A stretch of DNA of 13,485 bases from Abditibacteriaceae bacterium (GCA_031425655.1 JANPJS010000230.1:1-13485), one strand, 5' to 3'. Shown: positions 1 to 13,485, counted from the first letter of the stretch. The notes: a model not told the origin generated them from the letters alone. Numbers and translations: made by a program.

Positions 1-81
1 GTGCCCTTTGGGCAGGTTCCTCTTCCAAACAGGAAGAAGTGGCGCCAGCTTGTTTGGAAGAGGAACCTGCCCAAAGGGCAC
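1..81. repeat. Perfect 31-bp inverted repeat with 19-nt loop (REP-like palindrome), possibly truncated by the window edge
   Basis: 1-31 GTGCCCTTTGGGCAGGTTCCTCTTCCAAACA is the exact reverse complement of 51-81. Each arm also holds a mini-hairpin TGCCC-NNN-GGGCA. Confidence 0.85.
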
Positions 82-115
82 CCGGCCCCGCACCGCAAGC
101 CGAAGGGAGCGCGTC

Positions 116-3100
116 ATGATTCCGGTTCGCGTGCATTTGAACGGCTTTATGAGCTATCGTGAGCCGGGCGAATTTCTCTTCGACGGCGCGCCGCTGTGGA
201 TGTTGGCTGGGCCGAATGGCGCCGGAAAATCAACGGTTTTCGATGCCATTACTTTCGCGCTTTTCGGCGAAACACGCGCCGGTTCCACCAACTATCGTGA
301 GCTTATAAATCACCACTGCGATAACTTGGTGGCCGAGATAGATTTTCGTATCGGCGAAGACGTTTATCGCGTTAAGCGCACTATAAATCGGCGTAATAAA
401 TCCACGTTTCAAGCGTGGCATCTCAGCGGGCCGAATCCGCCGCCGGGCAAAGCGATTCCCGGCGAAGCTCGCGCCATTCCCGATGCTGAAAGCAAAACCG
501 GACTCGAATCGTGGGTGCGCGAAGTGCTGGGCTTAGACCGCGAGACGTTTTCTACTTCGGTCTTGCTGCGACAGGGCAAAAGCGACGCGTTACTCAACGC
601 CGAACCGCGCGAACGGCATCGGATGCTGGCGCAGATTGTCGGCCTCAAAGCCTATGAAAATTTGCACAAGCGCGTGGTGGAATTGCAGCGCGATGCCAAA
701 GGCGCCGCCGATTTTTGCCAGAGTAAATTGCAAAGCATTGAGCCGGTAGACGAAGACCGTTTGCTGGAACTGGCGCGCGTAATGGACGCCGCAGACGACG
801 CGAAAAACCAGGCGCGCACGCAAAGCGAAGAATGGACGCGCCTTTTGGTGCATTGCCGCGCGTGGCACGAATTGCAAAGCGAGCAAAACGAAATCGAAGC
901 GCGCCTCGCGACGGCGCGTGGGCTTATCGCCCAGGCGCCGCAAATTCGCGCCGATTTGCTGCGCTTTGCTGATTTGCAAAACGTGCTGCCGCGCCTGCGC
1001 GAATTGTGGCAGGTGCGCGAAAAACTGGCGACGTGCGAACGCGCGATTGAACAACTGACGCGCGACGCAAGCGAAGCGCAAAACGGTGCCGCCAGCGCCC
1101 AAATTACGTTGGATGCGGCCCGCGCGCGGCAAAACGAAATTGCCCTCGCGCAACGCGATTGGCTGAACCGCCGCTCGACCGCCGACGGGCGCATCGCGGA
1201 ATACGCCGAGCCTCTGGCGCAGCTTAATCATTTGGCGGAATTGCGCCGCGAAAGCGCCGAGCTGTCGGCACAATTAAACGAGTTTTCGGCGGATTTAGAA
1301 GAGCGTTTAATCGCGCTGCAAGCAGCCGTCGCCGAGCATTTGGAACTCAAAAGTGCGCGTCCCTGGCTCGAACAGTTTGTGCAAGCGCGCGAAGACTGGA
1401 AAAGCGCCCGCGCCGACGGCAAGAAGGCGAAAGAAGAGCAAGCGCACTGGCAGACGCAAATGGCCCAATGGGAGCCGCAAACCGAAGCGCTGACGGCGCA
1501 GGAAAACGCGATGCTTTCGCAGGCCAACGAAGCGCGCGAGGAATTGGGACAAGCGCGGGCGCGCGGCCATCAGATTAAGGAAAGTGAGGCGCGTTTGCAC
1601 TCGGTGGAGAATCAACCGATGTGCAGTTATTGCGGCCAGCCGCTGACCGAAGAGCATCTCGACGCCGAACGAGGGCGTTTGCGCGACGAAAAAGCTGTCG
1701 CACAACGCGATTTTGAAAGCGCCGTCGCGCGCCAGAAATTCGCCGAAAGCGAACTCGTGCGCGTGCAGCGCGAACGCGAATCGGCGATTCGCTCGTTGGG
1801 TGATGCGTGTCGTTCCGCACAAGATACCGAACGCGCTTTCGCGCAGGCCAAAGAGATGTCGAAAAGCGCTTGTTCGCGCGGTTTATCGGCGCTGGAGCAG
1901 TTGCCGGAACGCTGGCGAGTGCAAATTGACACCGACGGCAGCGGCCATTTGGAAACCTGTTTTCGCAATGGCTTTCCGTCTTCCGAAGACATTGACGAGG
2001 TGCGGCGGAGTGAGCGCGAAGGCGCCGGATTGTCGCGCGAACTTTCGGCGCTGCAAGAGCAGGTCGCAAGGCGCCGGAAAATCGCCGCGCAGAGCGAATC
2101 GTTAGATATACGCCGCGCGCCGCTCGAAGCGAAATTTTCTGCCGAAGTTGAAGCGCAAGTGCGAGAATCGGCCCGCCTCGCGCGCGACGATAAAATGCAG
2201 TCGGAAACGCAATTACGCGACTTAGCGGCACAACTGCAAGGAGCCGAACGCGATTTATCATCGGCGCAAGATTCTCTCGAATCCGCGCACGCCAAACGAC
2301 AAAACGCGGCAGACGCGCTGGCCGCGCAGCGGCAACTGCAAAGCGTCCAAAGCGGCGCGGCGGAGTCGTTGGAAGCAAACCTGTCAGCCGAATGGCAGAA
2401 GGCGGCCCGCGAACTTTCGGACGTGCGACTAAGCGAATGGGAAAGCGAAGCCACATCGCTGACAACTGCGCCGCAGCGCGTTCAAGAGCTGGAAAAGGCC
2501 GAACACGACGATAAATCGCTGCAAATTCGCTTGTTGGAAACGCAAAACAAGCTCGACGACGTGCCGCGCGAGGCGCGTCGTGCGCCCGAAGAAATTCAAG
2601 CGGCACAGCACACGGCGGATTTAGCTTACAGCGAGGCCGAAACGCAGTGGCGCGATGCGGCAGCCGAGCAAACGCGTTTGGAAAGCGATAAAAAGCAACG
2701 CGCGCAGGCCGAAGCCGATTTTCATGTGCAAACGCACCGCGCGCAATTATTGAAAATCTTAGCTGAATATCTGGGGCCGGATAAGTTGCAGCGCTATCTT
2801 TTGCAGGAAGCCGAAAACGCGATTGTCGCGCATTCCAATCAAGTGCTCGACCGCATTTCCAACGGCACTTTGCGCCTCGAACTGCGCGCCAACGCTGCTA
2901 CGACGACCTCGAAAGAGCCAACCGCATTGGACATGGTCGCTTTCAATTCCGAGACCAGTGAACAGCCTTTGCCGGTCGCGTTATTAAGCGGTAGCCAGCG
3001 TTTTCGCGTGGCGGTCGCGGTGGCGCTGGGCATGGGACAATTCGCCAGTCAGGGCACGCGGCGCATCGAATCGGTGATTATTGACGAAGGTTTCGGCAGC

Positions 3101-3274
3101 TTAGACCGCGATGGCCGCCGCGAAATGATTGACGAATTGCATTCGCTGAAAAGTGTCTTGCAGCGCATCATTTTGGTGTCGCATCAGGAAGAATTTTCCG
3201 ACGCCTTTCCCAATCGCTACGCCATCGAACTGCGCGACGGCGCCTCGCACGTCACGCTGGTGGATGAGCGGTAA
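116..3274 (+). CDS. sbcC: SbcC/Rad50-family SMC-like ATPase (SbcCD nuclease subunit C), ~1052 aa
   Basis: ATG at 116 after GAAGGGAG; N-terminus MIPVRVHLNGFMSY; Walker A GPNGAGKS; Q-loop LLRQG; long coiled coil with central Zn-hook CSYC (1622-1633); signature LSGSQ; Walker B/D-loop VIIDEGFGSLD; H-loop VSHQ. Confidence 0.9.
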   Translation: MIPVRVHLNGFMSYREPGEFLFDGAPLWMLAGPNGAGKSTVFDAITFALFGETRAGSTNYRELINHHCDNLVAEIDFRIGEDVYRVKRTINRRNKSTFQAWHLSGPNPPPGKAIPGEARAIPDAESKTGLESWVREVLGLDRETFSTSVLLRQGKSDALLNAEPRERHRMLAQIVGLKAYENLHKRVVELQRDAKGAADFCQSKLQSIEPVDEDRLLELARVMDAADDAKNQARTQSEEWTRLLVHCRAWHELQSEQNEIEARLATARGLIAQAPQIRADLLRFADLQNVLPRLRELWQVREKLATCERAIEQLTRDASEAQNGAASAQITLDAARARQNEIALAQRDWLNRRSTADGRIAEYAEPLAQLNHLAELRRESAELSAQLNEFSADLEERLIALQAAVAEHLELKSARPWLEQFVQAREDWKSARADGKKAKEEQAHWQTQMAQWEPQTEALTAQENAMLSQANEAREELGQARARGHQIKESEARLHSVENQPMCSYCGQPLTEEHLDAERGRLRDEKAVAQRDFESAVARQKFAESELVRVQRERESAIRSLGDACRSAQDTERAFAQAKEMSKSACSRGLSALEQLPERWRVQIDTDGSGHLETCFRNGFPSSEDIDEVRRSEREGAGLSRELSALQEQVARRRKIAAQSESLDIRRAPLEAKFSAEVEAQVRESARLARDDKMQSETQLRDLAAQLQGAERDLSSAQDSLESAHAKRQNAADALAAQRQLQSVQSGAAESLEANLSAEWQKAARELSDVRLSEWESEATSLTTAPQRVQELEKAEHDDKSLQIRLLETQNKLDDVPREARRAPEEIQAAQHTADLAYSEAETQWRDAAAEQTRLESDKKQRAQAEADFHVQTHRAQLLKILAEYLGPDKLQRYLLQEAENAIVAHSNQVLDRISNGTLRLELRANAATTTSKEPTALDMVAFNSETSEQPLPVALLSGSQRFRVAVAVALGMGQFASQGTRRIESVIIDEGFGSLDRDGRREMIDELHSLKSVLQRIILVSHQEEFSDAFPNRYAIELRDGASHVTLVDER

Positions 3275-3835: not shown

Positions 3836-3917
3836 TTTCCGATTCGCACGTCACGCTTGTGGATGAACGCTGAAGGCTGTGGTGAAATTGAAGTTGAATC
3901 TCGGAGGAATCATCGAA

Positions 3918-4652
3918 ATGCAGAATCGTCAAAATCTCGCGCGCAAAGCGTTTACGTTAGTCGAACTTTTGGTCGTCATTGCGATCATTTCTTTGCTCGC
4001 CGCATTACTTTTCGGGGCGATGACGCGCGTGCGCGAAAACGCGCGCAAAACCAATTGCCTCAGCAACATGAAGCAGTTGCAGATGGCCGTTTCGATTTAC
4101 CAGCAGCCTTACGATGAAACGATGCCGCTAAGCTTTGCCGACTTCGATCCGGCCAACAACACTTTCGAGCCGGGCAACGGCGAGAAAGGCTGGGCGCAAT
4201 CGCTTCAGCCTTTTATTCAAAATACGCAGGTGTTCGGCTGCCCGAACGATAGTTCCCTCGTTACCAATGATCCGGCCACTTCGTTTAGTGATTACGCTTA
4301 TAATCGGGCGTTGGGCTACGTTTCGGCAAACATCGGGCCGCGCACCTTAGCCGATATCAAAAGCCCGGAATTGACCATTCTTTTCAGCGAAGCCGATCCG
4401 GGCAGCGCGGCCAGCAGCCAACCGACCAACTTGAATAAAAGCGGGTTGCTCACGGGCGCGGCAGCTTTAACGGGTTCCAAGTTGGCGCGGCATTCAGGCG
4501 GCTCGAACTTCGTGTTTTGCGACGGTCACGCCAAGTGGTATCCCGCCGACAGCGATACGGAAAGCTCGAAAATATACGCCGCCAATACGCCGTTTAACAT
4601 ATCGGGCGACAGTCCAACTTTTCACGCTGACGATCAAGTGACGTATCCGTGA
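3918..4652 (+). CDS. Prepilin-type N-terminal cleavage/methylation protein with DUF1559-like region and C-terminal H-X9-DG motif
   Basis: GGAGG at 3903-3907; KA|FTLVELLVVIAII; ARKTNCLSNMKQL; FGCPND; RHSGGSNFVFCDGHAKW (H-x9-DG). Confidence 0.9.
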   Translation: MQNRQNLARKAFTLVELLVVIAIISLLAALLFGAMTRVRENARKTNCLSNMKQLQMAVSIYQQPYDETMPLSFADFDPANNTFEPGNGEKGWAQSLQPFIQNTQVFGCPNDSSLVTNDPATSFSDYAYNRALGYVSANIGPRTLADIKSPELTILFSEADPGSAASSQPTNLNKSGLLTGAAALTGSKLARHSGGSNFVFCDGHAKWYPADSDTESSKIYAANTPFNISGDSPTFHADDQVTYP

Positions 4653-5774: not shown

Positions 5775-6116
5775 TTAGCTTGTTTCTTCGGGCACGAAAA
5801 TCCACAGGCAGATGTAGACAATCGCCCCGACGCCATAGCCACAGATTAGCACCGCGAAGCCAAGCCGCCAGACCCACGACGGCAACGGAGTCAACTTCCC
5901 CAGCCCGCCGCAAACGCCGCCCAGCCAGACATCGCTTTTGGAGCGCGTGAATTTCCGCAGAACATCTGTCGAAGCATTGACGATGCTCGGCGCCCCGTCT
6001 GAGGCATCCGGCGCTCCTTGCAGCACGCGCGCTTTGGCTTCGGCGAATTCCGCGTCGGTGAGCGCGCCGGAGTCCCGCAGTGTCTGGAGTTTCTGAAGTT
6101 CGTCCACGATGTTCAT
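5775..6116 (-). CDS. SHOCT domain + PspC domain membrane protein
   Basis: N-terminal DELQKLQTLRDSGALTDAEFAEAKARVL (SHOCT); C-terminal RSKSDVWLGGVCGGLG...VWRL...YICLWIFVP (PspC); AAGGA RBS upstream. Confidence 0.85.
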   Translation of the reverse strand: MNIVDELQKLQTLRDSGALTDAEFAEAKARVLQGAPDASDGAPSIVNASTDVLRKFTRSKSDVWLGGVCGGLGKLTPLPSWVWRLGFAVLICGYGVGAIVYICLWIFVPEETS

Positions 6117-6229
6117 GGGCCGCCATCCTTTTGCTGTCTAACGTGCGTTCAATCAGATTATGGCAACCGTGAGCGGCGTTGGCTACACGGCGCAGCGATT
6201 GTTGGCAAATCGTGAAGCACAGGAGAAAA

Positions 6230-7639
6230 ATGAAATCAACATTACTGGCGTTGTTTGTCCTCTTCAACGTGGCACTGGCCGGTGCGCAAGGCCAGAAACT
6301 GTCTCCGCTTTCGGGCTTCTGGCAGGGCGCGCTGAATGCGGGGCCGATCCCGATTCGTGTCGAATTCGCTATCGCCGAAAAAGAGGGCAAGCTGCTCGGC
6401 ACATTGTCGAGCGTGGATATGGGCGGAGTGGGCGCGGCGCTGAACGTGATCAGCCTGAAAGAGCGGGTGGCTCGCTTTGAAGTCGGCCCACAGGACTTTT
6501 TTACGGGCACGCTGAACGATCAGGGCACAGAAATCGTGGGCACATGGCAGCAGGGCAAGGCCAAATTTCCCTTAACTCTAAAGCACGCGGACAAAGCCAT
6601 CGTGCTACACCGTCCGCAGGAGCCGAAGCCGCCATTTCCCTATCGCACGGAAGAAGTTGTGATCCCTGCGTCGAAAGACGTAAAGCTGGCCGGCACGCTG
6701 ACTCTGCCGCCGGGCGATGGGCCGCATCCCGTCGTGGTATTCATCAGCGGCTCCGGGGCGCAAGACCGCGACGAATCGTTGATGGGACATCGTCCGTTCG
6801 CGGTGCTGGCCGACCATCTCACGCGACAGGGCATCGCGGCGTTGCGCTGCGATGATCGCGGTGTGGCTCGTTCCACCGGTAACTTCGCCATCTCCACTAC
6901 CGCCGATTTCGCCGACGACACGCGCGCCCAAGTCGCATGGCTGCGCGCTCGCCCGGAAATTGATAAGCGCCGCGTCGGGCTTGTCGGCCACAGTGAAGGC
7001 GGCATCGTCGCGCCGATGGTCGCCGCGCAGGACAAAGACGTGGCGTTCATCGTTTTGCTGTCCGGCGTCGGTGTGCCGATGAAAGAACTGTTGGTGCGGC
7101 AAATGGTGGACGGGACGCGATTAAAAACCACCGACCCGAAAAAAATCGCCCGCACCGAAGCGATGGGGCACGAAGTAGTCGCCTTACTCACCGAAGACCT
7201 GGACGACGCCGCGCTGGAAAAGCGACTGCGCGAAAAAGTGACGGCCTCATTCGCCGAGTTAACGCCCGCAGAGCGCGCCGAAGGCGCCGACCTGGAATCT
7301 GTTATCTCAAGTCTTCTGCCGTTACTGCGCTCGCCGTGGCAACGCTGGATTGTCCGCTACGACCCCGCGCCGAATCTGCGCGCCGTAAAATGTCCGGTGC
7401 TGGCGCTCAACGGCGAAAAGGACGTGCAGGTCGCCGCGAAGGAAAATCTCGAAGCCATCGCGCGCGAGTTGGCCGCCGGCGGCAATAAAACCGTGAAAAC
7501 CGCCGCGCTGCCGAATCTCAACCACCTTTTTCAACATTGCCAGACGGGAGCGATCAGCGAATACGGCGAAATCGAAGAAACCATGTCGCCCGAAGTGCTG
7601 ACGCTGGTGTCCGATTGGATTCGCGCACAAACGAAGTGA
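6230..7639 (+). CDS. Secreted alpha/beta-fold serine hydrolase (S9/S15-like), ~469 aa
   Basis: AGGAG RBS; signal peptide MKSTLLALFVLFNVALAGA; RPQEPKPPFPY; GSGAQDRDE; nucleophile GHSEGG; acid GEKDVQV; His NHLFQ. Confidence 0.9.
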   Translation: MKSTLLALFVLFNVALAGAQGQKLSPLSGFWQGALNAGPIPIRVEFAIAEKEGKLLGTLSSVDMGGVGAALNVISLKERVARFEVGPQDFFTGTLNDQGTEIVGTWQQGKAKFPLTLKHADKAIVLHRPQEPKPPFPYRTEEVVIPASKDVKLAGTLTLPPGDGPHPVVVFISGSGAQDRDESLMGHRPFAVLADHLTRQGIAALRCDDRGVARSTGNFAISTTADFADDTRAQVAWLRARPEIDKRRVGLVGHSEGGIVAPMVAAQDKDVAFIVLLSGVGVPMKELLVRQMVDGTRLKTTDPKKIARTEAMGHEVVALLTEDLDDAALEKRLREKVTASFAELTPAERAEGADLESVISSLLPLLRSPWQRWIVRYDPAPNLRAVKCPVLALNGEKDVQVAAKENLEAIARELAAGGNKTVKTAALPNLNHLFQHCQTGAISEYGEIEETMSPEVLTLVSDWIRAQTK

Positions 7640-10243: not shown

Positions 10244-10753
10244 TCAAGCCGGGCGGCGACGCCGCGCGTTTGATAATTTCCCCAAAAACACCAACAGCAC
10301 GCCCAGCGCGGCCCACATCGCCACCGACACGCCGATGCTTTCGTTTTGCCGCTCTAAAAGCCGCGCGTTGGCGTTGCCCGCAACCGCGAAAAACAAGGCG
10401 CACGCACCGCGAATGCCAAGCGCCACGCCGATGTTGATTGCCATGAAAAACCACAGGGCAAACAACAGATTCCACGCGACAACAAGGCGCTCACCGCGCT
10501 CCGGCGGGGCGATTTGACGACGCGAACCGCGCCACTCGCGCCGCAAAGCGCGCCCGATTTTTTCGGGCTTGCCGAACTGCTGCAAAGCACCTTTTAGCGC
10601 CGCTTCGGGCGCGTGGCCCGCGCTCAGCTTGGCCTTCACCGCTTCGCTGAGATGCCCGCGCATCTCGCCGACCATTTCGCGGCGCAGCGTCAAAGGCATC
10701 GGCCAGAGGCGGCGCTCGATGCGCGCCAAGTATGTTTCAAGCGGTTCGCTCAT
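10244..10753 (-). CDS. PadR-associated membrane protein with N-terminal permease-prefix-1/HAAS-like helical domain
   Basis: LETYLARIERRL...EMRGHL...ALQQFGKPEKIGRAL followed by TM segments; overlaps the 3' end of the PadR gene; GGAGG RBS. Confidence 0.8.
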   Translation of the reverse strand: MSEPLETYLARIERRLWPMPLTLRREMVGEMRGHLSEAVKAKLSAGHAPEAALKGALQQFGKPEKIGRALRREWRGSRRQIAPPERGERLVVAWNLLFALWFFMAINIGVALGIRGACALFFAVAGNANARLLERQNESIGVSVAMWAALGVLLVFLGKLSNARRRRPA

Positions 10754-11078
10754 CGCGTTTGCCTCCAATCACGTCATTGATGGCGTTACTGAAATTGCGC
10801 CATGTTTCGGTGCGGCGCGCGAGTTCGGCGTGGCCGTCGGCAGTCAGCGTATAAACCTTGCGCGCCGGGCCGCTGCCCTCGGTTTCCCAATGGCTGGCGA
10901 CAAATTTCTGCCGTTCCAGCGCGTGCAGCGCCGGATACAGCGTGCCTTCCTTGAACTTCAGCGCGTTGCCGCTGCGCTCTTCAATTTGCCGCGCAATTGC
11001 GTAACCGTGCAGAGGCCCGTCGCCCAGCACCGCTAAAATCATCGTCGGCGTGTTCCCTTTTAATAACTCTCGTTCCAT
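10737..11078 (-). CDS. PadR family transcriptional regulator
   Basis: ELLKG...ILAVLGDGPLHGYAI...KEGTLYPALHALE...GPARKVYTLTADG; likely start ATG 11078. Confidence 0.93.
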   Translation of the reverse strand: MERELLKGNTPTMILAVLGDGPLHGYAIARQIEERSGNALKFKEGTLYPALHALERQKFVASHWETEGSGPARKVYTLTADGHAELARRTETWRNFSNAINDVIGGKRDERTA

Positions 11079-11086
11079 CGCCGCCA

Positions 11087-11115
11087 ATTGTAATATGATC
11101 TACATCGGATTGCAA
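11087..11115 (-). promoter_or_regulatory. Sigma70-type promoter for the PadR gene (probably leaderless) with an overlapping candidate operator
   Basis: Minus strand TTGCAA-17 nt-TACAAT, then 8 nt to ATG, with no SD. TGTA-N8-TACA inverted repeat at 11089-11104. Confidence 0.65.
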
Positions 11116-11262: not shown

Positions 11263-11441
11263 TCAGTGACCATCACGTTTTTCGGCTGGCGAATGCGTCG
11301 GACGAGGCGCGGAAGTTGCGAAGACAGGCATTGCACGGTCATAGCAAAAATCGCAGCGGCAATTTAGAGGAACGAAGCCGCGCGCATGGCCGTATTTTTG
11401 CCCGGCTTCGTAAACTCGAAGTTGCAACAAAGGAGACTCCC

Positions 11442-11636
11442 ATGAACTTTTTAAAAGCCGACGAAACGGTGCGCCGTCCTTTGCCGGCAACTCCGATTGA
11501 ACGTCCGGGCGGCGACGACAAAAGCGGCCCCAGCGCCCCCAAAGTGCAGCGTCCCGACACACGCCATTTGCTCGAACGCATGAAGCGCGTAGACCCCGAT
11601 CAAGCCAAACGCTACCGCCAACGCAGCGGGCAGTAA
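11442..11636 (+). CDS. ubact: UBact: Pup-analogous ubiquitin-like small protein modifier (64 aa, C-terminal RSGQ)
   Basis: AAAGGAG RBS; Pro/Gly-rich disordered N-half; C-terminal LLERMKRVDPDQAKRYRQRSGQ matches the UBact R[ST]G[EQ] end; lies directly upstream of proteasome beta and alpha genes. Confidence 0.9.
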   Translation: MNFLKADETVRRPLPATPIERPGGDDKSGPSAPKVQRPDTRHLLERMKRVDPDQAKRYRQRSGQ

Positions 11637-11640
11637 CGGC

Positions 11641-11756
11641 AGACACGGAGTTATGAGACACGGAGTCGGGAGACAGAAGAATTGATACGATTGCATCCGC
11701 GTTTTCAACTCCGTGTCTTCCAACTCCGTGTCTCCGTGTCTCCCAACTCCGTGTCT
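11641..11756. repeat. Palindrome of ~15-nt-period repeats between ubact and prcB
   Basis: AGACACGGAGT at 11641 and 11656 (degenerate copy at 11671), opposed by AACTCCGTGTCT at 11707, 11722 and 11745 (partial copy at 11732). Confidence 0.85.
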
Positions 11757-11767
11757 TTCCTTTCACT

Positions 11768-12586
11768 ATGAACACACAATTTCAAGCGCCGGGCGATTTT
11801 TCCCGCTTGGTTTCCTTAGCGCCGCACGCGGATGTGCCGTCGGGCGGCGCTTCCACTTCGATTGACACGCATGGCACGACGGTCATCGCCGTGAAATACC
11901 GCGATGGCGTGCTCAATGTCGCTGACCGGCGCGCGACTGCGGGCATGGGCGTGATGTTCGACCGCGCCGAGAAGATTTTGCCGCTCGACGACCATACTTT
12001 AGTCGCCATCAGCGGCAGCTTTGCCAAAGCGATTGAAATCTCGCGTTATTTGCGGCATTCGTTCAAATACTATCAGCGCAGCCAGTTGCAGCCGATGAGC
12101 TTGGAAGGCAAATTGGCCGAGATGTCGCGTGCGATTTCCAACAACTTGCCAATGATGTTGCAAGGCATCGGCGCGTTTATTCCCGTCTTGTCAGCGTGGG
12201 ACGAAGAAGCGAATGAAGGCCGCATTTTCTTCTACGACGGCATGGGCGCGCGCTTCGAGAGCGCCGAATTCGGCGCGGCGGGCAGTGGCAGTTCGGCGAT
12301 TCGCGGCGCCTTCGATTACATCGTGCGCACGCACAAGCCCTTTTCGCAAATGGATTTGCAGGAAGCCTTGCGCGAATGTTTAATCCTGCTCGACATCGCC
12401 GCCGATTTAGATGCCGCGACTGGCGGCTATTCCAAAATCCTGCCCGCCGCCAAAGCCGTGACGCGCGAGGGTATTTTGTCGCTCGACGAAGAGCAAATGA
12501 AAGCCGTTTTGCGCGCGATGGCCGCAGGCAGCGTGCCCGCTGTTTCGACTGTGCGCGCCGAAAAAATAGAAGCGGACGCGGAATAA
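11768..12586 (+). CDS. prcB: 20S proteasome beta subunit (Ntn threonine protease) with 36-aa propeptide
   Basis: THG|TTVIAV processing site (Thr1 codon at 11876); D17/R19 in ADRRAT; K33; G47; AAGSGS; DLDAATGG. Confidence 0.93.
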   Translation: MNTQFQAPGDFSRLVSLAPHADVPSGGASTSIDTHGTTVIAVKYRDGVLNVADRRATAGMGVMFDRAEKILPLDDHTLVAISGSFAKAIEISRYLRHSFKYYQRSQLQPMSLEGKLAEMSRAISNNLPMMLQGIGAFIPVLSAWDEEANEGRIFFYDGMGARFESAEFGAAGSGSSAIRGAFDYIVRTHKPFSQMDLQEALRECLILLDIAADLDAATGGYSKILPAAKAVTREGILSLDEEQMKAVLRAMAAGSVPAVSTVRAEKIEADAE

Positions 12587-12655
12587 TTTTGAGTTTTAAG
12601 TTTTGAGTTTTGAATTAGCATCAACTCAAAACTCAAAACTCAAAACTCAAAACTC
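12587..12655. repeat. Palindrome of heptamer tandem repeats between prcB and prcA
   Basis: Four TTTTGAG-type units (12587-12614), a short loop, then four CTCAAAA units (12625-12652). Confidence 0.9.
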
Positions 12656-12657
12656 TT

Positions 12658-13383
12658 ATGTATAGCCCTTACGATTTCAACCAATCCATCGCGCATCGCG
12701 CGGAATATGTCGAAGAACGTTTGCGCGGCGGCTCGCCGGTCGTGGGCGTGTCCTACGACGGCGGAGTTTTGCTGTTCGCGGTGCGGCGTGGGCCGCGCAA
12801 AATCTTCGAGATTTACGACCAAATGATGTTCGCCGCTTTGGGCAATCAGGCCGATGTCGAAGCCGTGCGTCTGGCGGCGATTGACTTTTGCCATCAGGAA
12901 GGCTTTCAGCGCTCGCCGGACGACGTTTCGGCGCAGCGTTTAGTCGGTTTCGCTATTTCGCCTCCCTTGAAGCGCGCGTTTGGCGACCCGATGATGACGC
13001 CCAACGTGATGCGCGCGGTTTTCGCCGAAATGGGCAAAACCGCCGAAAAAGACACCTTTTTCGTGCTGAATTACGACGGCGAATTTATGTCGTCGCGCCG
13101 CTTTGCCGTGGCGGTTGGCGGCGATAGCAGCGGCGATGCCATGCGCGAATCGCTGGAAAAATCGCTGGGCGACCATGCGCCGGATTTGCCTGCTGCTTTG
13201 CGCGCCGCCGCCGAAGCATGGCGCATTGGTGCGCGTCCGCGCGGCGATGACGACGAAAAAGCGGAAGACGATTCGCTGGCCGAAGCTCTCAGAGAAGGCC
13301 GCGTCGAAGCCGCGATTCTCGACCGCCAAACCGCGCGCGAAAGCAAATTTCGCCTGCTGCGCGAAGATGAACTGAAGTTCTGA
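12658..13383 (+). CDS. prcA: 20S proteasome alpha subunit
   Basis: MYSPYDF...RAEYVEERLRGGSPVV, RKIFEIYD, ALGNQADVEAVRLAAID, EGFQRSPDDV, VEAAILDR; follows prcB. Confidence 0.9.
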   Translation: MYSPYDFNQSIAHRAEYVEERLRGGSPVVGVSYDGGVLLFAVRRGPRKIFEIYDQMMFAALGNQADVEAVRLAAIDFCHQEGFQRSPDDVSAQRLVGFAISPPLKRAFGDPMMTPNVMRAVFAEMGKTAEKDTFFVLNYDGEFMSSRRFAVAVGGDSSGDAMRESLEKSLGDHAPDLPAALRAAAEAWRIGARPRGDDDEKAEDDSLAEALREGRVEAAILDRQTARESKFRLLREDELKF

Positions 13384-13394
13384 AGCTGAATGGA

Positions 13395-13485
13395 ACACGG
13401 GCTTCGCACACGGAAACGACACGGATTTTCACGGTTTTTCTTTCGATTGATCCGTGAAAATCCCCGCCGTTGCCGTGTGCGAAGC
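13395..13485. repeat. Imperfect palindrome with ACACGG repeats downstream of prcA (runs off the window)
   Basis: GCTTCGCACACGG (13401-13413) pairs with 13473-13485; GGATTTTCACGG (13423-13434) pairs with 13452-13463; ACACGG occurs at 13395, 13408 and 13419. Confidence 0.85.

Follow-up and report, generated by a model that had tools for sequence, protein, structure and literature searches.

The stretch of DNA analysed here (hereafter the window) comprises 13,485 nucleotides and makes up the entire contig C230 in a metagenome-type assembly, 97% complete, of an Abditibacteriaceae bacterium. Near its 3' end it encodes three consecutive genes on the plus strand: ubact (11442..11636), specifying a tag protein of 64 amino acids with a net charge of +6 and the C-terminus RYRQRSGQ; prcB (11768..12586), specifying a 20S proteasome beta subunit of 272 amino acids; and prcA (12658..13383), specifying an alpha subunit of 241 amino acids whose frame is intact and full length. 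An earlier interpretation made from the DNA sequence alone (the sequence-only reading) had placed the 64-residue protein just 5' of prcB, with prcA 3' of the latter, had likened this arrangement to actinobacterial pup-prcB-prcA, and had assigned the tag to UBact, a named family, rather than to Pup. Each of these points was borne out by the analyses described below.

The tag protein scored 77.3 bits against Pfam PF20513 (cut-off 27.8) and 80.6 bits against NCBIfam NF033388 (cut-off 35), and positions 11442-11636 gave the sole UBact match of a profile search in this genome. Its end conforms to R[ST]G[EQ], which we take to be the mark of the UBact family; the same pattern closes all 32 relatives (RSGQ in 19, RSGE in 13), and among closed frames at loci of metagenomes, viruses and named genomes it does so in 86/86. 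By itself such a tail does not identify a UBact: 8 of 86,676 stop-to-stop frames of at least 40 amino acids in the genome carry it, only 11442-11636 matching the family model. Identification of the 64-residue protein as Pup was rejected, as it had no Pup match at E 0.1 and ends in SGQ rather than GG[EQ]; the Pup profile (PF05639) gave 0 matches across the genome, while a C. glutamicum control was positive. By every criterion that can be computed, the window protein belongs to the UBact family and is not Pup. Its content of 8 Pro and 4 Gly residues suggests a disordered protein, and the UBact profile retrieved no PDB chain at E values up to 10, though the PDB includes Pup chains. The 64-residue start is supported by a Shine-Dalgarno-like AAGGAG (11430..11435, plus strand) 6 nt 5' of the ATG, by an equivalent Met that opens all 23 aligned UBacts, and by the open frames at ubact in three same-genus genomes, which span 72-78 amino acids only; an SD-like word precedes the start in 24 of the 32 relatives. 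A version of 125 amino acids with a TTG start, which the sequence-only reading had already flagged as an over-extension by the ORF track, was rejected because the extension is not conserved: the same-genus frames are too short for it, and tblastn found weak similarity in those three genomes and no more.

PrcB carries a 36-residue propeptide, with HG|T at residue 37 (Thr1 codon 11876-11878), and alignment verified the mature residues T1, D17, K33 and G47 that had been read from the sequence as an intact active site. Its nearest solved structures are beta subunits (E 9e-29 to 3e-22), presumably of Rhodococcus and mycobacterial type, judging from the PDB codes. Against TIGR03690 it scored 142.5, under the equivalog cut-off of 191.9 and yet by far the best of the models (HslV 21.6). 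Same-family proteins share a C-terminal extension, V-R/K-A-x-R/K-I/V-E/D-A-D (approximately 12550-12586), that is absent in the other-family proteins compared. PrcA scored 82.4 bits against the bacterial alpha model TIGR03691 (cut-off 139) and matched solved PrcA structures at E 7e-13. An HslV is encoded elsewhere, on contig C48 of the source genome (G000; L010:1492-2034, minus strand; NF003964 286 bits, over cut-off), so that genes for HslV and for a 20S proteasome coexist in this genome.

Three different short repeat families part the operon genes, and relatives often have extra genes at the same junctions. The first, an imperfect repeat between ubact and prcB (11637..11767; 14 blastn matches on 8 contigs of the genome), is not part of the UBact system. 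The second, between prcB and prcA (12587..12657), is palindromic and self-complementary, with 302 blastn matches on 85 contigs, and the third, of a different family, lies 3' of prcA (13389-13485). Rfam gave 0 matches within the window, and a promoter and terminator scan returned counts at chance level. Divergent from ubact are genes for a PadR-family regulator and a HAAS-domain membrane protein (10244-11087, minus strand). The remaining neighbours, namely an SbcC/Rad50-like ATPase (8-3274), a prepilin-type DUF1559/H-X9-DG protein (3879-4652), a SHOCT-PspC fusion (5775-6116) and an alpha/beta hydrolase (6179-7639), are ordinary and unrelated to the UBact locus.

The third repeat contains a 91-nt exact match (13395..13485, plus strand) to the start of contig C160, which is the sole contig partner for this end of C230. 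Because C160 opens with a PafA-type ligase gene on the same strand (C160:117-1601, outside the window; 494 amino acids), the operon likely continues as ubact-prcB-prcA-pafA. These four genes occur in that order on a single contig of the same-genus genome G002. Contigs from three DNA runs, the best-matching of which may be the source sample itself, confirm the window sequence piecewise, and none among the contigs listed from these runs bridges the C230-C160 join.

Exactly two Pup_ligase-family genes are present in the genome, on C160 and C187. The C160 enzyme has no Dop loop and bears the PafA-specific V-G-S-H insertion, His and Ser-Ser; at the 19 alignable positions that discriminate Dop from PafA according to Hecht et al. 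(PMC7947786), assigned by reading of the alignment, it is PafA-type at 10, Dop-type at 2 and neither at 7. It scored 293 against the PafA model TIGR03686 (cut-off 551), and since a whole-sequence search placed it slightly nearer Dop (E 1e-59) than PafA (E 4e-51), its assignment as a ligase rests on motifs and position. Among 58 homologues, GxExE is kept in 57, and D74 (equivalent to D64, which is Asn in the inactive 4BJR variant), R232 (equivalent to R201), R250, H252 and W462 are each kept in all. The structural model has the PafA/Dop fold (pLDDT 85.6; TM 0.74-0.82 for nine of the ten best matches). The second enzyme (C187:1228-2712) was identified as Dop from its Dop loop with the conserved Trp, its DHGH (DHxH) motif and the Arg of TRDEPH; it aligned over its full length with the A. 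cellulolyticus Dop 4B0R at E 1e-100, versus E 4e-62 for PafA structures, and scored 410 against TIGR03688 (cut-off 492). The single ARC-type ATPase of the genome (C34:38913-40724) exceeded the cut-offs of PF17758, PF16450 and PF00004, possesses both tandem proteasomal OB domains and an AAA module with Walker A/B and pore loop, has Mpa as best PDB match (E 3e-97), and scored 447 against the equivalog model (cut-off 505). The genome thus holds all three kinds of partner (PafA-like, Dop-like, ARC/Mpa) to which the sequence-only reading had pointed. Both dop and arc sit amid unrelated genes, unlinked from the window operon, a split that the sequence-only reading had missed along with the probable continuation into pafA. 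No Bpa/PafE was found in a search run without a positive control.

The closest named prcB loci belong to Abditibacteriaceae MAGs (89-91% identity) and also to Armatimonadota MAGs, with one 71% match labelled Actinomycetes, and homologues of the C160 ligase are named Abditibacteriaceae, Chthonomonas and Capsulimonas. Across 41 genomes including the source, 33 have UBact, while Pup_ligase, ARC and prcB each occur in 34; one set of seven genomes is devoid of all four. Linkage was tallied in 21 relatives (15 same-family, 6 other-family) out of the 32 with UBact; genomes in which a part was absent, truncated or confined to a very short contig were left out, as were three distant genomes with pafA on another contig. 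It is important to note that these relatives are kin rather than independent samples, and that the counts are descriptive and not statistics. In the same-family genomes pafA lies 2.1-10.3 kb from ubact in 15 of 15, dop lies at most 2.1 kb away in 7 and is unlinked in 8, and arc is within 10 kb in none; in the other families, arc is at most 4 kb away in 5 of the 6 genomes. Given that arc is unlinked in 15/15 and dop in 8/15, the split locus of the source genome is typical of its family.

The UBact system was named in 2017 (Lehmann, Udasin, Livneh, Ciechanover, BBRC 483:946, as cited in PMC12751074) and is also mentioned in PMC11354881. Small G[EQ]-ending tags beside PafA genes and proteasome subunits have been noted in Nitrospirae and verrucomicrobia (PMC2588565, PMC5666114, PMC7947786), and Armatimonadetes were named as having proteasome subunits by Fuchs et al. 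2017 (PMC5666114); the accessible portions of Iyer et al. 2008, Fuchs et al. 2017 and Hecht et al. 2020 hold sequence-level notes only on such loci. Whereas Hecht et al. 2020 (PMC7947786), in the portion accessible, term Dop/PafA homologues of Armatimonadetes very sporadic, UBact was found in 143 of 251 Armatimonadota genomes sampled evenly over the phylum, and mostly on an all-or-none basis by family. The UBact-proteasome system described here is already catalogued and is common in Armatimonadota, and the locus itself adds little, being one of many such operons with a tag already named in databases. It resembles Gram-negative UBact loci in having a tag over both cut-offs with an R[ST]G[EQ] end, directly 5' of prcB-prcA, and PafA, Dop and ARC homologues in the same genome; as far as compared it differs from them in gene arrangement only, arc and dop being unlinked here. 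With the actinobacterial Pup system it shares the order tag-prcB-prcA-pafA, a terminal G[EQ], the catalytic residues, and homologous ligase, deamidase, ATPase and core subunits. Unlike that system, its tag has an RSGQ end instead of GG[EQ] and carries a net positive charge (+6), Pup being acidic, its ARC ends in -GVI rather than GQYL, its PrcA is without R26, and its ligase has an insert of approximately 29 residues and a different substrate loop.

We consider it probable that UBact and the 20S core form the heart of a tag-and-destroy pathway akin to pupylation. The scheme is modelled on pupylation as set out in PMC8599861 and bioRxiv 10.64898/2026.04.10.717840, and while genes, families, catalytic residues, gene order and co-occurrence were computed, every biochemical step is one that we infer. 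Dop (C187) would deamidate Gln64 of UBact to Glu and would also remove the tag, and the C160 enzyme would spend ATP to link lysines of the substrate with the Glu side chain through an isopeptide bond. The ARC hexamer (C34) would then capture the tag by its N-terminal coiled coil, unfold the substrate and thread it into the 20S core, docking by its Tyr-free -GVI tail, the carboxylate of which would bind PrcA K48. Interchange of Q and E at the tag end is the expectation for a deamidase-coupled tag (PMC8599861), and the 19 Q and 13 E ends among the 32 relatives fit such coupling. In favour of the pathway we counted a UBact over cut-off, two Pup_ligase genes, one ARC, and co-occurrence of the parts in the 41 genomes; against it, scores under the actinobacterial equivalog cut-offs (PafA 293/551, Dop 410/492, ARC 447/505, beta 142/192, alpha 82/139), an ARC without GQYL, a PrcA without R26, unlinked arc and dop, and a C230-C160 join that falls in a repeat family. 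Literature searches, covering few subscription papers, found no experimental study of UBact or of its conjugation to lysines. Reconstitution would tell whether a tag with no recognisable sequence similarity to Pup has been combined with the ligase, deamidase and proteasome known from pupylation, and whether the tyrosine is dispensable when a proteasomal ATPase opens the gate. Since close homologues of the ligase occur in Chthonomonas and Capsulimonas, for which cultured strains exist, bench tests are practical; the source genome, as a metagenome-type assembly, is not the best starting point for them.

A first departure from the actinobacterial system concerns docking of ARC on the core. Mycobacterial activators need a C-terminal GQYL (PMC12288473, PMC8755798), in which Tyr binds PrcA R26 and the carboxylate binds K52 (PMC8755798, PMC12288473, bioRxiv 10.1101/249060), and loss of PrcA R26 blocks PafE-driven degradation (bioRxiv 10.1101/249060). 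The C34 ARC ends in ARNGVI, with no GQYL/HbYX motif. Tyr is absent from the last four residues in all 32 complete relatives, and the ARCs from metagenomes (15/15) and further ones from the phylum (5/5) are likewise Tyr-free; two terminal Val/Ile residues are present in 30 of the 32, the Armatimonadota tail being basic and of the type x-[G/S/N]-V/I-I. Among 46 ARC-like proteins hand-picked from the best 150, a penultimate Tyr was found in 9 and a VI/II end in 7, and as one of the latter sits in a cluster named Nanoarchaeota, the Tyr-free tail is not confined to Armatimonadota. On the side of the core, PrcA G24 aligns with M. tuberculosis R26, a position at which none of 40 PrcA has Arg (S 11, D 10, G 7, E 6, A 5, Q 1); its N-terminal neighbour, Arg or Lys in 36/40, might compensate for the missing Arg. 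PrcA K48 aligns with the M. tuberculosis activator-pocket lysine K52, and Lys is found there in 40/40. Because the ARC tail and this Lys are both conserved, docking would appear to be altered rather than lost. When a complex was predicted from ARC residues 572-603 and three copies of PrcA, the score was 0.01 and the mark 0.32, values that weigh on neither side of the question of binding.

In corynebacteria without a proteasome, the tag directs unfolding or disassembly of complexes. By extension, UBact could be conjugated here with ARC never docking on the 20S, the tag directing unfolding or complex disassembly and the core acting alone or with an unknown activator. The missing penultimate Tyr in 32/32 relatives and 15/15 metagenome tails, the want of Arg at the R26 position in every PrcA, the distance of arc from the operon throughout the family, and the possession of HslV by this genome would all agree with such a division of labour. 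We nevertheless regard it as unlikely, as the ARC tail is conserved and not decayed, the carboxylate-binding Lys is invariant, ubact remains directly 5' of prcB, arc lies in the operon in five of the six genomes tallied from other families, and ARC and prcB co-occur.

A second departure concerns the ligase. The segment between GxGR/KVG and QLSQR comprises 38-39 residues in 19/19 PafA-position proteins versus 9-13 in 13/13 Dops, which in the C160 enzyme amounts to the insert of about 29 residues noted above. The loop that contacts the substrate in C. glutamicum PafA (residues 196-216; bioRxiv 10.64898/2026.04.10.717840), ATTRSRPIINTRDEPHA, has RVRFNRAIINPKRDSFY as its C160 counterpart. Together with the 7 of 19 discriminating positions that fit neither enzyme, this rewritten loop and long segment could mean that general ligation to protein lysines is not the role of the C160 enzyme, which would instead be a ligase of narrow specificity, a second hydrolase, or an enzyme that attaches UBact to another kind of acceptor. 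We judge this improbable. All catalytic residues are retained, R207, which is central to substrate recognition in PafA (PMC10465538), is matched by a basic residue in 58/58 (Lys in 55, Arg in 3), the V-G-S-H insertion, His and Ser-Ser are present while the Dop loop is absent, and a bona fide Dop is encoded separately. That the locus has fallen silent or is a remnant in decay, as splitting of the original six-gene operon within the family and the repeats between its genes might be taken to indicate, is scarcely credible against six intact frames (ubact, prcB, prcA, pafA, dop, arc) with invariant catalytic residues and the retention of UBact in 15/15 same-family genomes that are at least 90% complete.

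Within the preferred reading, a tag-dependent route into the 20S core, we give about an even chance to a more specific proposal: that in Armatimonadota UBact systems a Tyr-free tail and an Arg-less alpha pocket together open the 20S, and that the ligase selects substrates by its lineage-specific insert and loop. What appears new here is the loss of the PrcA Arg in parallel with the absence of Tyr from ARC, along with the remodelled ligase; no description of the Tyr-free tail, the Arg loss or the remodelled ligase was found in the literature searched, which included few subscription papers. If true, docking by a Tyr-free tail would represent an ATP-dependent proteasome activator outside the HbYX/GQYL rule.

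Several other UBact-like loci were encountered. A phage UBact of 58 amino acids with an RSGQ end (L198:7010-7186, plus strand; PF20513 67.4 and NF033388 67.3, both over cut-off) sits between portal and head-morphogenesis genes of a 69,987-nt viral record (G041) with direct terminal repeats, in which no Pup_ligase or proteasome gene was found. It was the only match in two viral scans, and tblastn found no UBact in 50,697 GenBank phage records. Within a single Armatimonadota family, three genomes have an additional UBact-like ORF, divergent in sequence, in tandem between ubact and prcB (L201:3606-3803, minus strand; L200:2499-2684, minus strand; L202:3219-3416, plus strand); these end in RSGQ, RGGQ or RPGQ, scored 29.6, 33.2 and 24.1 bits against PF20513 (cut-off 27.8), and possibly form a two-tag system. 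A similar ORF with a KNGQ end (L204:1331-1528) lies on another contig of a fourth genome. FKBP genes have been noted next to actinobacterial Pup loci (Iyer et al. 2008, PMC2588565), and one genome only (G039) encodes a 124-residue ORF (L203:1711-2085, plus strand) that combines an FKBP-type domain (PF00254 29.9, cut-off 21.1) with a UBact-like tail ending in RSGE (PF20513 33, cut-off 27.8; NF033388 32.6, just below 35).
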